Below, in pieces: positions 30,827-36,477 of a DNA stretch of 64,000 bases. The position numbers were made by a program, and so were the translations under genes. This stretch comes from an uncultured Roseicyclus sp. (GTDB lineage: Bacteria > Pseudomonadota > Alphaproteobacteria > Rhodobacterales > Rhodobacteraceae), in the NCBI GenBank assembly GCA_947491935.1, contig CANLLF010000003.1, positions 580,397 to 644,396 of the forward strand, given 5' to 3'. The notes beneath the pieces were generated by a model. It ran no database searches, was not told where the DNA came from, and saw only the letters and a list, made by a program, of their open reading frames with translations. Positions within the stretch are counted from its first letter, which is position 1. Every line of letters begins with the position of its first letter.

Positions 30827-31819
30827 TTATGCATTCACGTCGACGACGACACGGCCCCGGACACCGCCCTTGAGGATCGACCGCCCCAGATCCGGCAGGT
30901 CGCCAAGCGTCGCGGGCTGCACCATGGCCTCCAGCTTGTCCATTGGCAGGTCCCCGGCGATCCGCCCCCAGGCGCGCAGGCGGTTGTCATAGGGCTGCAT
31001 CACCGAGTCGATGCCCAGAAGGTTCACGCCCCGCAACAGGAACGGAATGACCGTCGCCGGAAGCTGCGCACCACCGGCCAGCCCGACCGCGGAGACGGAG
31101 GCGCCGTATTTCATCTGCCCCAGCACGCGGGCCAGCATATCGCCGCCCACGGCATCGACGCAGCCCGCCCATGTCTCGGCCTCAAGCGGGCGCTTCGTGG
31201 TTTCGTTGAGGTCTTCGCGCGGAACGATCCGGCTGGCCCCCAGCGATGTCAGGTAATCCGCCTGCTCCGGGCGCCCGGTGACGGCGGCCACGTTATGGCC
31301 CAGATGGGCAAGGATAGCGGTGGCAACGGACCCCACGCCACCTGCCGCACCGGTCACCAGAACCTCACCATTTCCGGGCGTTAGACCGTGATCTTCAAGC
31401 GCCATCACCGCCAGCATGGCGGTGAATCCCGCCGTGCCCACGGCCATTGCCTGCCGTGTCGTCAGGCCATCGGGCAGCGGCACAAGCCAATCGGCCTTCA
31501 CCCGCGCCTTCTGGGAATAGCCGCCCCAATGGGCCTCCCCCACGCGCCAGCCCGTCAGCACAACCTTGTCGCCGGGGGCGTAGCGGTCATCGTCGGACGT
31601 CTCCACCGTACCCGCAAAATCGATGCCCGGCACGTGGGGGTAAGTCCGCACCAGCCCGCCGCCCGGCCCGATGCACAGACCATCCTTGTAATTGACCGTC
31701 GAATACTCGACCGCGACGGTCACGTCGCCCTCGGGCAGACGGTCTTCGCTGAGGGATTGAACCGAGGCGCGGGTTTTGCCCTCGTCGTCCTTTTCCACCA
31801 CAAGTGCATTGAATGTCAT
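30827..31819 (-). CDS. acuI: Acryloyl-CoA reductase AcuI (YhdH family)
   Basis: VEYSTVNYKDG, PGIDFAG, GTAGFTAML, TGAAGGVGS, PFLLRGVNLLGIDS; directly downstream of dmdA. Confidence 0.93.
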   Translation of the reverse strand: MTFNALVVEKDDEGKTRASVQSLSEDRLPEGDVTVAVEYSTVNYKDGLCIGPGGGLVRTYPHVPGIDFAGTVETSDDDRYAPGDKVVLTGWRVGEAHWGGYSQKARVKADWLVPLPDGLTTRQAMAVGTAGFTAMLAVMALEDHGLTPGNGEVLVTGAAGGVGSVATAILAHLGHNVAAVTGRPEQADYLTSLGASRIVPREDLNETTKRPLEAETWAGCVDAVGGDMLARVLGQMKYGASVSAVGLAGGAQLPATVIPFLLRGVNLLGIDSVMQPYDNRLRAWGRIAGDLPMDKLEAMVQPATLGDLPDLGRSILKGGVRGRVVVDVNA

Positions 31820-31871
31820 CGCATCATCTCCCTCGATCATCACATGAAGAACGCCCCCTAACCTTCGGGGA

Positions 31872-32975
31872 TCAATTCCAGAATCTTTCTTTCACAACGG
31901 CGGCATACTCACCGTAGGGCGATTGCACGCTCAGCTCCGTGCCCGCGTCCCAATGGGTCATGCGGACCATGCCGATGGCAACCCCGCCGCCGAAATCGGG
32001 GCTGATCGCGGCCGACGTCACCTGCCCCACACGCTTACCGCCGGCCATCAGCGGCCACGCCCTGTCACTTCCCGGCAGGGTTTTGGCCTCGATGGCAATC
32101 GGGCGCACCTGTTGCACCGGGCCTTCCTTGGCCACCCGCAGCAGCGCGTCGCGCCCGATGCACCCGATGGCCGTGGCGGTGTTGCAAAACCGGCCAAGCC
32201 CGCATTCATGGGGCGTGTTGTCATCGGTCATATCGTTGCCATAGCTCAGCAAACCGCCCTCGATCCGCTCGATATTGTTCGGGCAACCGGCCCGCACATC
32301 CAGCGGCTTGCCCGCCTCCATCAGCGCATTCCACAGCGGCATCCCGATATCCGCGCCATCCACGTAGATCTCGAACCCGCCCTGTTTGGAATAGCCCGAC
32401 CGCGCAATGGCCAGATCCCGGCCCTGAAACGTGAACCAGCCGAAACGGAAAAAGCGGATGTCACGGATGCTGTCGCCAAAGACCTCCGCCATCAGGTCAT
32501 CGGCTTTCGGCCCCTGTACGGCAAGCGGCGAAATATCGGGCTCATCGACCAGCACGTCCAGCCGGTAGCCCTGCGCCACGCCCTTGACCCACAACAACAA
32601 ATCGCTGTCGGCGATGGAGATCCACCACCGATCCTCGGCCAGTTTCAGCACAACAGGATCGTTCAACATGCCGCCGGTCTCATCGACAACGGGCATGTAA
32701 TAACACTGCCCCGGCAGCATCCCGCGCAGATCGCGCGGCGTGAGCATCTGCACCAGCTTGCCCGCATCGGGCCCGCGCACCTCGACCTGCCGCTCCACGG
32801 ACACATCCCAGATCTGCACCGCCTCCTTCAGGTGGCGGTAATCTTCCTCGGGCGACCGGAACATCGTCGGCAGCAACATGCGATTATAGACCGTGAAGGC
32901 CTTGACGCCCGCGGCTTCGACACCGTCGGAAAACGGTGTGCGGCGGAGGCGACGGGATTGGGAGATCAGGGCCAT
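31872..32975 (-). CDS. dmdA: DMSP demethylase DmdA (GcvT family)
   Basis: SRRLRRTPFS..V...GVKAFTVYNRMLLP, WDVSVERQVE, GGMLNDPVVLK, ERIEGGLLSYG; acuI synteny. Confidence 0.9.
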   Translation of the reverse strand: MALISQSRRLRRTPFSDGVEAAGVKAFTVYNRMLLPTMFRSPEEDYRHLKEAVQIWDVSVERQVEVRGPDAGKLVQMLTPRDLRGMLPGQCYYMPVVDETGGMLNDPVVLKLAEDRWWISIADSDLLLWVKGVAQGYRLDVLVDEPDISPLAVQGPKADDLMAEVFGDSIRDIRFFRFGWFTFQGRDLAIARSGYSKQGGFEIYVDGADIGMPLWNALMEAGKPLDVRAGCPNNIERIEGGLLSYGNDMTDDNTPHECGLGRFCNTATAIGCIGRDALLRVAKEGPVQQVRPIAIEAKTLPGSDRAWPLMAGGKRVGQVTSAAISPDFGGGVAIGMVRMTHWDAGTELSVQSPYGEYAAVVKERFWN

Positions 32976-33049: not shown

Positions 33050-33514
33050 ATGAACCGGATAATTCTGGCCACCTTGGCCCTTATGGCGACATCGTCCCTG
33101 GCACATGCGCAGGACCATGGCCCGGAGGCGGTTGCCAGTACGATCCTGAACGCATTCGTGGCACGTGATGTCGCCACCATCGGCGCCCATTCCAGTGCGT
33201 TCAATGAAGGGTTCTTTGCCCGGGTTCAGGCCGGAGAGGTCGACGGGTCGTCGGTGTTCAACGGGCTTGAAGGCCGCGCGGCGACGCAGTGGGACGGTCT
33301 GATCCTGCCCGCGCGATATGACGACGGCTACGCCATCGTGCCCTTTGCAATCGAGGTTGGAGATGACGCGCAATCGCTCTCGACGCAATCCCAGGGACGC
33401 CTGATCGCGATCATCCTCACGCTCGACGGCCCCGACGATCGGACCTGGGGCATCGACGATCTCGATGTCGTCCAGCCCGAGGCCTACATGGCCTTCTCCG
33501 AGACCCGCCCCTAA
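33050..33514 (+). CDS. Secreted hypothetical protein, antisense to the surrounding operon
   Basis: RBS ggagg, signal peptide ending AHA, host-like codon usage; stop overlaps the dinB stop. Confidence 0.7.
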   Translation: MNRIILATLALMATSSLAHAQDHGPEAVASTILNAFVARDVATIGAHSSAFNEGFFARVQAGEVDGSSVFNGLEGRAATQWDGLILPARYDDGYAIVPFAIEVGDDAQSLSTQSQGRLIAIILTLDGPDDRTWGIDDLDVVQPEAYMAFSETRP

Positions 33515-34026
33515 CGCCATTCCGGCACCTCGTCGGGCATGAAGGGCAGATCGGTATCGTGGGTCTTGAGGCCAAGGCCTGTCAGCGCGGCGTGAACCTG
33601 CCCGCGATGATGCGTCTGGTGGTTGAACAGCTGGACGATGCACATGGTCTTGGGCATCGCCATCTGCCGCTCGACCGCCATCGAGTACCACGTGACCTCA
33701 CCCTCGAAATCACTGTCATCGGTGGACCAGGCCCAGGCCGCGATGCGGGCGTCGAGCGCCGGGCGGGCCTCCATAAGCGCCGCCCAGTCGTAGCACGACA
33801 TGGAGCCCTTGAGGTCCGCATCGGGCCCCTGCCCGTCATCAAACCGCGCAATCCAGACCAGATCGCCCCACATCAGGTGGCTGAGCGTGCCCCGGATGGA
33901 TCCCCAGAACAGCCCGCGATCCTCCTCGCGCTGCGCGTCGGTCAGCCCGTCGCAGGCCTGGTACATCCACTGGTTCTGCCACGCGTTATAACGCGCCATG
34001 GTGCGGGCATAATCGGGGCCAATCAT
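33511..34026 (-). CDS. DinB/YfiT family protein
   Basis: ARYNAWQN, FWGSIRGTLSHL, FNHQTHHRGQVH. Confidence 0.9.
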   Translation of the reverse strand: MIGPDYARTMARYNAWQNQWMYQACDGLTDAQREEDRGLFWGSIRGTLSHLMWGDLVWIARFDDGQGPDADLKGSMSCYDWAALMEARPALDARIAAWAWSTDDSDFEGEVTWYSMAVERQMAMPKTMCIVQLFNHQTHHRGQVHAALTGLGLKTHDTDLPFMPDEVPEWR

Positions 34027-34740
34027 CTACTTGCCACCCGCGCTGCCGGACCAGTCGATGGGGCAGATCTCGGCCGATTTCCCGCCGAAATCCCACATCT
34101 TGCCAAAATCCCGCACCTTGGATTTCAGGCCCTTGGCGGCGATGATGTCGGGGCCCATCCAGTATTTGGAATTGGTGATCATCACCGGGTGATCCTCCGA
34201 CGCGCCGGTGATCATCTCGATCTCGCCCTGGATCTTGCGCCCGACATAGAGGCCCCGCTTCTTGCCGTCGCGCACGATCTCGACCTTCTCGCGCTCGGCG
34301 CTGACGATGTCGGAGACGAGCAGCGTGAACAGGCCGGTGGTTCCGCCCGCAGCGCCCGAGAAGATCTCAAGGATGCCCTGATAAGCTTTGCCGCTCGCCC
34401 GCTCATCCACGTACGCCGCCACCTGCCAGCCGCCTTCGGCCATCTTGCCGGGGATGTAGACCATGAGGCCGACATTCAAACCGGCCAGGCTTTCGCCCTC
34501 GAAATGGCCTTCATCGATGGCAATCGCCATCCAGGCCTTGCAATCGCCCTCGGTCGGGTCGTGTTTGCCCAGGCTCACGACGCAGGGGCAGAAGACGGTG
34601 CAGGAGCAGTTCAGGAACAGCTCGCCCTTGATCGCCCAATCGCGGGGCTTCATCTGGCGGCGTTTGGGGTTGTCCATGCGCTGATCGATGCGCTGGCTGA
34701 CCGGCAAGCGGTCCGCGTCGGGGCGTTTTTTCACGGCCAT
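34027..34740 (-). CDS. DUF1326 family protein
   Basis: WAIKGELFLNCSCTVFCPC, EGDC, IDEGHFEG..L.GLN, YVDERA. Confidence 0.8.
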   Translation of the reverse strand: MAVKKRPDADRLPVSQRIDQRMDNPKRRQMKPRDWAIKGELFLNCSCTVFCPCVVSLGKHDPTEGDCKAWMAIAIDEGHFEGESLAGLNVGLMVYIPGKMAEGGWQVAAYVDERASGKAYQGILEIFSGAAGGTTGLFTLLVSDIVSAEREKVEIVRDGKKRGLYVGRKIQGEIEMITGASEDHPVMITNSKYWMGPDIIAAKGLKSKVRDFGKMWDFGGKSAEICPIDWSGSAGGK

Positions 34741-34751
34741 GAATGACCCTC

Positions 34752-35627
34752 CTATGTGGCGATGAGCGGCCAGGCGAGCACGCCCAATCCGCCTGCAATC
34801 AATGCCGCCCCCAGGGGCCGCGTGACGTAGTGGCCCACCTCGGGCAGTTTTTCGATAACCATGAACAGCGTGGCGAGGCCCATCCACAGGAGGCTCATCA
34901 TGCCACCCACGAAGCCAAGCGCCATAAAACCCCAGCAGCAGGCCGCGCAATAGAGGCCAAGACCCGCCCCCATGCGTGCGCCACCCTGAAATCCGGTGCG
35001 CCAATAGCCCAGGAAGTAAGTCATCGGCGCGTGGCAGACGCCGTGGCAAACCTCCTTGGCGCGGGTGAACTGGAACGCCCCCACCGCGATCAGAAGGCCG
35101 CCCGCGATCCAGACGGACTGGGCGATGCCCATCCTGTCGATGATGCCCACGCGCAGAAGGCCCAGTTGCGCCACGGCAAAAAGCGCGGCCACGCCGATCC
35201 AGACCATCGAATAGCCCGCCAGCACCCCGAGCCAGCCCGCCCGCGTGCCATTGGCCGACACGATCAGCCGATCATAAGTGGTCAGCGTGGGCACCAGCGT
35301 CGGCAACATCATCGCCGCCATCATGAGCGACCACATGGCCCAGAGCGGGCCGAACCGCGTCATGGCGGACATGTCCATGGCGCCCATATCGTCCATGGCC
35401 ATCGGCATGGCCCCGTCTGCGGGCACCGCGCCATCCATCGGCATCGCACCGTCCGCAGGCATCGCATCGCCCATCTCCATATCCATGGGCATCGTGGACA
35501 TATCCATCGCGGGCCGCCCCAACAGATCAAGGCCCATCCCGGCGCTCATCTGGTAGAGCACCACCCACGACAGCAGGATCCCCCCGAAAAACGTAAGCCA
35601 CAGCACAGATCGGATCGTGTGGGTCAT
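34752..35627 (-). CDS. DUF2182 family putative metal-binding membrane protein with Met-rich loop
   Basis: W.LMMAAMMLP, GAFQFTRAKEVC..VC, GLYCAACCWGFM..FVGGMMSL.WM motifs. Confidence 0.85.
   Translation of the reverse strand: MTHTIRSVLWLTFFGGILLSWVVLYQMSAGMGLDLLGRPAMDMSTMPMDMEMGDAMPADGAMPMDGAVPADGAMPMAMDDMGAMDMSAMTRFGPLWAMWSLMMAAMMLPTLVPTLTTYDRLIVSANGTRAGWLGVLAGYSMVWIGVAALFAVAQLGLLRVGIIDRMGIAQSVWIAGGLLIAVGAFQFTRAKEVCHGVCHAPMTYFLGYWRTGFQGGARMGAGLGLYCAACCWGFMALGFVGGMMSLLWMGLATLFMVIEKLPEVGHYVTRPLGAALIAGGLGVLAWPLIAT
35361..35507 (-). repeat. Met-rich imperfect 18-nt repeats in DUF2182
   Basis: 16 Met in 49 aa; units AMPADG/AMPMDG/AVPADG/AMPMAM. Confidence 0.8.
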
Positions 35628-35699: not shown

Positions 35700-35723
35700 T
35701 GTCAGACAATTAAATGTCTGACA
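35700..35723. promoter_or_regulatory. FadR/GntR-type operator between divergent DUF2182 operon and regulator
   Basis: Perfect inverted repeat TGTCAGACA-attaaa-TGTCTGACA ending 1 nt before the regulator ATG. Confidence 0.8.
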
Positions 35724-35724
35724 A

Positions 35725-36477
35725 ATGAAAATCGACCCAAACAACCCCGCCGACCTCTCTGCGCAGATTGCAGCCGCCATCCGTGATGCGATCATTGCGG
35801 GCCGCCTGATCGTGGATGAACGTCTGCCGTCCGAGGCGGAACTGGCCGAGAATTTCGAGGTTTCCCGCCCAACCGTGCGCGAGGCGCTGAAGCGGCTGGC
35901 CGCGCAGAGCCTGATCCGCACGCAACGCGGCGCCTTTGGCGGGGCCTTCGTGAACCGGCTGAGCTTTGAGGATGCCTATAACCAGCATATCACAACCTCG
36001 ACCCTATTGCTGGGGATGAATGGCGTCAGCTTCGATACGGCGTGTGAGGCGCGGTTTGCGCTGGAACGCGCCTGCGCGGCGCTCTCGGCGGAGCGGCGCA
36101 GCGCCGATCATCTGGCCACGATGCGCGCCGAGGCCCTGCGGCAGGCACAGCCCGGCCTGAGCGACGAAGCCTTTTGCGCCTCGGATGTCGCCTTTCACCG
36201 CGCCCTTGTCGATGGCGCGGGCAATCCGGTGATGTCCTATCAACTGGCCGGTGCCGTCGAGGCGATGCAGCCGCTGATGAACATGATCACCTTCACCGCC
36301 CGCAACCGCGCGGAGATCGTGCGGCTGCATTCCGGCATTGCCGATGCGGCCGAGGCGCGGGATGGCGACGCGGTCGCGCACATCCTGACGGAGTTGGAGG
36401 CCTATACGAAAACACTGGCCCAGTCCGTGTTCGCGGCCCGCGCTCAGGCCTCGGGCACCGGCTCCACCGCGCGGTAG
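35725..36477 (+). CDS. FadR/GntR family regulator (probable DmdR)
   Basis: LPSEAELAE.F.VSRPTVREALKRL winged HTH plus FCD domain (SDVAFHRAL); divergent from dmdA operon. Confidence 0.88.
   Translation: MKIDPNNPADLSAQIAAAIRDAIIAGRLIVDERLPSEAELAENFEVSRPTVREALKRLAAQSLIRTQRGAFGGAFVNRLSFEDAYNQHITTSTLLLGMNGVSFDTACEARFALERACAALSAERRSADHLATMRAEALRQAQPGLSDEAFCASDVAFHRALVDGAGNPVMSYQLAGAVEAMQPLMNMITFTARNRAEIVRLHSGIADAAEARDGDAVAHILTELEAYTKTLAQSVFAARAQASGTGSTAR

Follow-up and report, generated by a model that had tools for sequence, protein, structure and literature searches.

The DUF2182-DUF1326-DinB block beside dmdA-acuI in an uncultured Roseicyclus sp.: very probable identity with dmdE-dmdF-dinB and a possible copper-handling role of DmdE and DmdF

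Why do genes for a DUF2182 membrane protein, a DUF1326 protein, and a DinB-family protein accompany the genes for the demethylation of dimethylsulfoniopropionate (DMSP), and what might their products do? The question is raised by a 64,000-nucleotide stretch of DNA from an uncultured Roseicyclus sp. (contig CANLLF010000003.1, positions 580,397 to 644,396; hereafter the window), in which the three genes lie upstream of dmdA and acuI. An initial annotation, made from the DNA letters alone, had regarded them as a membrane copper/thiol-handling or redox-protection system dedicated to DMSP demethylation. The three genes are located on the minus strand with gaps of 11 nt and 0 nt, exactly as tightly coupled and at the coordinates given there, and a GGAGG ribosome-binding site precedes the DUF1326 gene. 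All features discussed are listed in Table 1 with their positions in the window.

Table 1. Positions of the genes, operator, and coding subregions considered in this work.
Feature	Position	Strand	Description
dmdR	35725..36477	+	GntR/FCD (FadR-type) repressor, divergent from dmdE; Pfam GntR 4.7e-19, FCD 4e-18
DmdR operator, two 13-bp dmd boxes	35701..35728	-	TCATTTGTCAGAC, AT, TTAATTGTCTGAC; in the 97-bp dmdR-dmdE gap
dmdE	34752..35627	-	291 aa; PF09948 (DUF2182 / PpoB2 family) membrane protein
Met-rich loop coding region	35358..35516	-	DmdE residues 38-90, 53 aa, 16 Met
Tandem repeat in Met-loop coding region	35399..35475	-	Tandem Repeats Finder
dmdF	34027..34740	-	237 aa; DUF1326 protein; start 11 nt past the dmdE stop
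dinB	33511..34026	-	171 aa; ATG immediately after the dmdF stop
orfX	33050..33514	+	154 aa; genus-specific, secreted (signal-peptide-like N-terminus); between dinB and dmdA
dmdA	31872..32975	-	DMSP demethylase; NCBIfam equivalog NF009133 665 bits, cut-off 410
acuI	30827..31843	-	acrylyl-CoA reductase, YhdH family; TIGR02823 456 bits, cut-off 297

The deduced products of the block matched PF09948 (2e-55), PF07040/DUF1326 (1.8e-46), and PF05163/DinB (1.1e-20), respectively. NCBIfam contains no model for any of the three or for orfX, and a PDB sequence search with DmdE, DmdF, and DinB gave no useful solved structure. A full-text literature search for DUF2182 or DUF1326 retrieved a single paper (Fu et al., EMBO J 2026, PMC12992908), in which the DUF2182 gene of Ruegeria lacuscaerulensis is named dmdE and the DUF1326 gene dmdF. 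Both sit with a DinB-family gene upstream of dmdA-acuI and are co-transcribed with them; growth with DMSP was abolished in dmdE and dmdF mutants, deletion of dmdA partly rescued the dmdE mutant, and DmdE was left as 'function unknown' (PMC12992908). The divergently encoded GntR regulator DmdR represses the block from a pair of 13-bp dmd boxes (TTAAATGTCAGAC) with a spacing of 2 bp, to which it binds until acryloyl-CoA releases it (PMC12992908).

The window shares with R. lacuscaerulensis ITI-1157 the three Pfam families in the order E, F, DinB, the divergent dmdR with tandem dmd boxes, and dmdA-acuI downstream on the same strand. The boxes differ from the R. pomeroyi box TTAAATGTCAGAC by 3 and 2 mismatches, their 2-bp spacing is identical, and the pair at 35701-35728 is the only tandem pair in the entire genome of 4.65 Mb. 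The distribution of the families was determined in 301 genomes of the same family (Rhodobacteraceae), one per genus, with DMSP-type DmdF defined by at least 51% identity. PF09948 was present in 170 of them, DMSP-type DmdF in 153, bona fide DmdA in 131, and SBP56 (see below) in 84. Of the 131 genera that have dmdA, 112 also contained a DmdF-type gene (odds ratio 18.6, p = 2e-27), and a PF09948 match lay 0.7-2.6 kb from dmdA in all 57 genera tabulated. Because the families and the gene order with its divergent GntR/FCD regulator match, the tandem boxes have the published spacing and are unique in the genome, and DmdF-type and PF09948 genes accompany dmdA, the block is very probably orthologous to the dmdE-dmdF-dinB unit that roseobacters have beside dmdA-acuI under the control of DmdR, and thus an already known system. 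The initial annotation had pointed to accessory genes dmdEF under DmdR control as possible counterparts, correctly so: the literature check led to Fu et al. 2026, with the same families, order, and regulator. In comparison with R. lacuscaerulensis ITI-1157, a genus-specific antisense gene (orfX) is inserted here between dinB and dmdA, and the Met-rich loop of DmdE is enlarged by 18-nt repeats. What is locally new, an operon-splitting genus-specific antisense gene and a repeat-expanded Met loop, is therefore minor. The published unit, taken together with a copper-handling mechanism for DmdE and DmdF, is our best explanation of the locus as a whole (probability roughly 0.8).

For the mechanism itself, we consider the chances slightly better than even that the two proteins DmdE and DmdF handle copper as a module complete in itself. 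With its probably periplasmic Met-rich loop and its invariant Met and Cys residues in the membrane, DmdE would acquire a soft metal, of which Cu(I) is the most likely, and would hand it to DmdF in the cytoplasm, a beta-cone protein whose five Cys are invariant. The effector whose loss makes DMSP demethylation toxic would then be DmdF in its metal-loaded form, and the published peroxidase-like activity would stem from its metal centre. This proposal is drawn from the membership of DmdE in the PpoB2 family, its invariant Met and Cys residues, the five Cys of DmdF, the occurrence of the pair as a unit, and the SCO1 and PCuAC genes that adjoin it in SAR11. It is plausible and new, and is found neither in PMC12992908 nor in the literature searched.

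The family of DmdE (PF09948) now bears the Pfam name 'PpoB2, copper chaperone'. DmdE matched the model with 188.1 bits (cut-off 28.7) and has the invariant residues M102, M106, M107, C198, C227, and C231. The founder of PF09948 / COG5486, PpoB2 of Marinomonas mediterranea, provides copper specifically to the tyrosinase PpoB1 encoded next to it. Beyond the family, the two proteins have in common Met-rich segments and conserved Cys in a membrane protein, and each works with a protein encoded next door. They differ in that the partner of DmdE is a DUF1326 protein and not a tyrosinase, and in His195, His199, and His266 of DmdE, which are specific to the roseobacter clade. No tyrosinase gene lies near dmdE at this locus; a tyrosinase-DUF2182 pair without DUF1326 was found in one sampled genome (L040).

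In 28 diverse members of PF09948, the residues corresponding to W99, M102, M106, M107, P109, Y139, W143, Q186, K191, C198, P201, C227, C231, and E259 are invariant; for the most part, these are ligands of soft metals or residues of membrane helices. Segments rich in MxM come after the first helix in almost every member compared. Invariant Met residues and Met-rich loops fit Cu(I) binding. The Met-rich loop of DmdE is predicted to follow the first membrane helix and probably faces the periplasm. It had been described as a 49-aa loop with 16 Met made of 18-nt repeats. The richness in Met is correct, but the 49-aa span given there holds 15 Met and the 53 aa of residues 38-90 hold 16; likewise, repeats are confined to the central approximately 77 nt of the coding region (35399-35475; period 18 with 3.5 copies and 68% matches, or period 36 with 2.1 copies and 78%), and the remainder of the loop is not repetitive. 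With the N-terminal helix counted, 17-28 Met precede the conserved domain in this genus and in close relatives such as Gymnodinialimonas and Hasllibacter, versus 10-12 in a typical roseobacter DmdE of 262 aa.

The AlphaFold model of DmdE is a multi-helix bundle (predicted local distance difference test score, pLDDT, 85.2) with a disordered Met loop (pLDDT ~50). The two Cys motifs that had been placed in the membrane, C194-x3-C198 and C227-x2-C230-C231, are both present. The CxxCC motif is indeed located in a hydrophobic helix (212-236), but the helix of the CxxxC motif (189-199) is short and more polar. A Foldseek search of the PDB with this model gave nothing at an E-value of 0.001 or below (best 1.3), which gives no basis for claiming a fold like that of DsbD/CcdA or of Ctr1.

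DUF1326-DUF2182 pairs also occur in many Pseudomonadota apart from DMSP metabolism. These generic pairs share with the block the two families, which are always adjacent, and the same invariant Cys and Met; they differ from dmdE-dmdF in that DUF1326 comes first, the DmdE homologues are ~38% identical, a DMSP context is missing, and the neighbouring genes are heterogeneous. Rhodobacteraceae also contain such a second, generic class of pairs (L004-L015, L042-L061), with up to four copies per genome. Among the neighbours of generic pairs (93 in other families, 103 in Rhodobacteraceae), no family recurs more than three times. Due to this heterogeneity, the pair itself is regarded as the functional unit, seemingly without a third, neighbour-encoded client. 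Copper-resistance and cuproenzyme genes were considered as candidate neighbours and rejected, with none found in the 93 + 103 neighbours except for one tyrosinase.

The Cys cluster of DmdF, C-S-C-x3-C-P-C plus a further Cys in the initial annotation, was recovered as C45-S-C47-x3-C51-P-C53 together with C67. All five Cys are invariant in 46 diverse homologues with identities down to 27%. The AlphaFold model of DmdF (pLDDT 89.7) gave significant PDB matches only to acetoacetate decarboxylase-like beta-cone enzymes (template modelling score ~0.4, E-value 3e-5), with no peroxidase, catalase, or peroxiredoxin fold among the matches of this fold search, and a sequence search of the PDB revealed no relative of DmdF. 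At its N-terminus, DmdF carries an extension of ~33 aa (residues 1-33; 34642-34740) that is basic and modelled with low confidence. Only a part of the DMSP-type DmdF proteins possess it, the others beginning at about residue 33, and it may be a docking segment for DmdE.

Fu et al. reported peroxidase-like properties of purified DmdF, which stained in the gel, consumed H2O2, and released O2, and an increase of reactive oxygen species in the dmdF mutant (PMC12992908). DmdF could accordingly be a genuine peroxidase that clears H2O2 arising from demethylation, with a separate or unknown role of DmdE and no involvement of copper; the presence of some AhpC/TSA, DUF899, DJ-1, or glyoxalase proteins among the neighbours of generic pairs is in line with this explanation. 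We nevertheless consider it unlikely. The model of DmdF shows no known peroxidase or catalase fold and is closest to acetoacetate decarboxylase-like beta-cone enzymes, and the five clustered Cys are the only invariant functional residues. The assays were carried out with large amounts of protein and 1.76 M H2O2, and neither a cofactor nor kinetics were given (PMC12992908), which leaves room for adventitious metal chemistry. A peroxidase would also leave unexplained why DmdE is constantly adjacent to DmdF and equally essential. The reported activity thus appears compatible with chemistry at a bound metal and is no proof of a dedicated peroxidase.

The context of DmdE and DmdF homologues in SAR11 was obtained by a search with a single DmdF relative (41% identical) as query, which yielded 45 loci from Pelagibacteraceae (L064-L108). 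In a typical cassette, genes for a DmdA-like protein, SCO1, a small lipoprotein, PCuAC, a DmdE-like, and a DmdF-like protein follow each other on one strand (e.g. L071 3621-7678), with matches to SCO1/SenC (2.9e-34), PCuAC (2.7e-19), PF09948 (1.3e-57), and DUF1326 (8.5e-35). The lipoprotein is Cys-rich with ~80 aa, and the DmdA-like aminomethyltransferase had the DMSP demethylase as best NCBIfam match (353 bits, cut-off 410). In the 45 loci, SCO1 adjoins in 43, DmdE in 41, and PCuAC in 33; DmdE is absent from L064-L067, where SCO1 still lies beside DmdF. The cassette of Pelagibacteraceae AG-333-C14 (L071) resembles the block of the window in its E-then-F order and its position beside a DmdA-family aminomethyltransferase, with 36-39% identity for SAR11 DmdF and 26-31% for SAR11 DmdE. 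It differs in containing two classical periplasmic copper chaperones, which are absent from the roseobacter block, and in having no dmdR, dinB, or acuI. A DAO-GcvT dehydrogenase gene also adjoins the SAR11 cassette. SAR11 had been stated to lack dmdE and dmdF (PMC12992908); the putative dmdE and dmdF homologues at these loci contradict that statement. Judged from its gene neighbours, the SAR11 context favours copper as the metal handled by the pair.

An alternative reading of the same features is that DmdE and DmdF constitute a transmembrane thiol-disulfide or electron relay in the manner of DsbD/CcdA, in which SCO1, a protein of thioredoxin fold, would be the redox partner on the periplasmic side in SAR11. 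The relay would make use of the conserved Cys pairs of DmdE in or near membrane helices and of the Cys cluster of DmdF. On the other hand, the DmdE model resembles neither DsbD/CcdA nor any solved fold (best Foldseek E-value 1.3, as above), invariant Met residues and a Met-rich loop suit Cu(I) binding rather than redox chemistry, the SAR11 cassette includes PCuAC, a dedicated copper chaperone, and the sole characterised member of the family, PpoB2, is a copper chaperone. We therefore regard a redox relay as very unlikely.

Several points count against a copper-handling DmdE-DmdF module. The Cys5 site of DmdF could hold Zn or an Fe-S cluster instead, and the topology of the Met loop is a prediction. 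Copper genes are missing among the ~200 neighbours of generic pairs, outside SAR11 and the single tyrosinase case (L040). SCO1 proteins can also act as thiol-disulfide oxidoreductases, and the SAR11 context is thus no proof of copper. Finally, copper is nowhere mentioned in PMC12992908.

MtoX (SBP56), the methanethiol oxidase, is copper-dependent, and the initial annotation had linked the block to this enzyme. On that account, the block would deliver copper specifically to MtoX for the removal of methanethiol formed in DMSP demethylation. The genome studied contains an SBP56 gene behind an IclR regulator gene, three genomes (G149, G160, and G245) have SBP56 only a few kb away from dmdE, and SBP56 and the DmdE-DmdF pair co-occur in the 301 genomes (odds ratio 6.6). 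This overall co-occurrence is, however, explained by dmdA: among dmdA genera, 57 of the 65 that have SBP56 also have the pair, as do 55 of the 66 that lack SBP56 (p = 0.62), and an SBP56 gene is absent in 55 of the 112 genera having both dmdA and dmdF. Nor is SBP56 found among the neighbours of generic DUF1326-DUF2182 pairs. The SBP56 protein of this genome (465 aa, no evident signal peptide; G000:C2:538743-541655 region, L003 7743-10655) scored 133 bits, far below the NCBIfam MtoX equivalog cut-off of 650; its gene is followed by one for a 222-aa protein without family match, and SCO1/SenC and MauG, which Eyice et al. described as neighbours, are missing from the locus. Of the proposed co-occurrence, the part concerning dmdA thus stood, whereas that concerning SBP56 disappeared within the dmdA genera. 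MtoX was rejected as obligate client of DmdE-DmdF on co-occurrence, and we see only a slim chance that the block is dedicated to it. A service to MtoX is not supported; the copper part of the copper/thiol-handling idea has support from the PpoB2 family, the invariant Met and Cys, and SCO1/PCuAC in SAR11.

In its full form, a copper-handling DmdE-DmdF module would amount to a previously unrecognised Cu(I) import line. Its PpoB2-type membrane protein would draw Cu(I) from the periplasm, assisted by SCO1 and PCuAC in SAR11, and would load it onto a copper-thiolate protein of the cytoplasm whose beta-cone fold is new; the reported 'peroxidase' would be copper-centre chemistry. This extended version is tentative, with odds clearly below even. 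If true, DMSP demethylation, the main marine DMSP sink, would be copper-dependent in roseobacters and SAR11; the process governs what share of marine sulfur stays in the food web and what share is lost as the climate-active gas dimethyl sulfide. DmdE and DmdF are indispensable for the demethylation of DMSP in a roseobacter (PMC12992908, 2026), and the PpoB2 membership, the five-Cys non-peroxidase fold, and the SCO1/PCuAC context in SAR11 turn the copper dependence of the pathway into a testable question. For the window itself, the outcome is mainly a correct annotation and a local variant of the operon arrangement.

The third gene of the block codes for a protein that, judged by its sequence, is a member of the PF05163 Bacillus DinB/YfiT-like four-helix-bundle family with conserved His (H50, H136, H140). 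A second Pfam match was to DinB_2 (PF12867, 9e-07), a weak PDB sequence match was to the DinB-like protein 3di5, and none of H50, H136, H139, H140, and H145 varies among the orthologues compared. The DinB superfamily reportedly includes metal-dependent thiol S-transferases, a finding ascribed to Newton et al. 2011. DinB would be a YfiT-like His-triad metalloprotein, and a role as thiol S-transferase acting on reactive products of the pathway would possibly fit it. A DNA polymerase IV (Y family, ~350 aa) was also considered for dinB and ruled out, the product having 171 aa and only the PF05163 and PF12867 matches. The description of DinB as 'damage-inducible, oxidative stress' in PMC12992908 cites Jarosz 2007 and McKenzie 2003; both deal with DNA polymerase IV of E. 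coli, a protein that has nothing but its name in common with the DinB of the dmd cluster. The earlier assignment as a YfiT-like His-triad protein, borne out by the PF05163 match and the invariant His, is thus better than the reading in that paper.

A remaining question is whether the unit still forms one operon with dmdA-acuI in this genus. The block had been placed at the head of the operon, upstream of dmdA-acuI on the same strand; position and strand are right, but the genes are not contiguous, as the 535-bp dinB-dmdA interval is occupied by orfX in antisense orientation. This gene overlaps the dinB stop by 4 nt tail to tail, leaves a 74-bp gap to the divergent dmdA, and has no Pfam or NCBIfam match. 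It is nevertheless real, with open, diverged copies (35-99% identity) in 15 of 18 congeneric genomes and in none of 37 other genera. At each of the six loci inspected, one copy or two tandem copies of it separate dinB from dmdA, on the strand opposite to them. In the 57 tabulated genera, the gap between PF09948 and dmdA amounts to ~1.25 kb in 35 (order E-F-DinB-A), ~0.75 kb in 13 (E-F-A), ~1.5 kb in two, ~1.8 kb in this genome only, and more than 2.2 kb in six. Downstream, acuI scored 438.8 bits against the AcuI equivalog with its cut-off of 440.

A second DmdR operator in front of dmdA was sought and rejected, for this genome as well as for five congeners. In the six congeners compared, the 160 nt upstream of dmdA contain no dmd box, and all that is conserved there is the ribosome-binding site and a short CTA motif; no other tandem pair exists genome-wide. 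Together with the intervening orfX, this means that control of dmdA by DmdR requires read-through antisense to orfX, or else dmdA is independent of DmdR. In the latter case, orfX would end the dmdE-dmdF-dinB transcript, and dmdA-acuI would be expressed from a DmdR-independent promoter of their own. Such uncoupling would agree with the fixed position of orfX, a real gene, in the genus and with the lack of a further operator, and the CTA motif with the ribosome-binding site could mark the separate promoter. However, no terminator-like site was predicted between dinB and dmdA, the 4-nt tail-to-tail overlap means that the dinB transcript must enter orfX in antisense, and dmdA of roseobacters is almost universally controlled by DmdR (PMC12992908). 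A promoter scan of the region revealed no sigma-70-type match, such a scan being uninformative for an alphaproteobacterium. Uncoupling is possible in our view, if rather doubtful; we favour transcription that would start at the single DmdR operator beside dmdE and would reach dmdA-acuI in this genus only by read-through across antisense orfX.

At the other end of the unit, the dmd box at 35716-35728 overlaps the annotated ATG of dmdR (35725). Accordingly, the mRNA of dmdR probably has no leader or hardly any, and DmdR would act as repressor of its own gene. Outside the window, at G000:C1:635192-635204, a dmd-like box occurs singly as a perfect palindrome, AATTGTCAGACAATT. It is located 35 bp upstream of the gene for an AMP-dependent acyl-CoA ligase of 534 aa, with an enoyl-CoA hydratase gene just upstream of the box. 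DmdR may have an additional target here, with a ligase that is perhaps DmdB- or PrpE-like.

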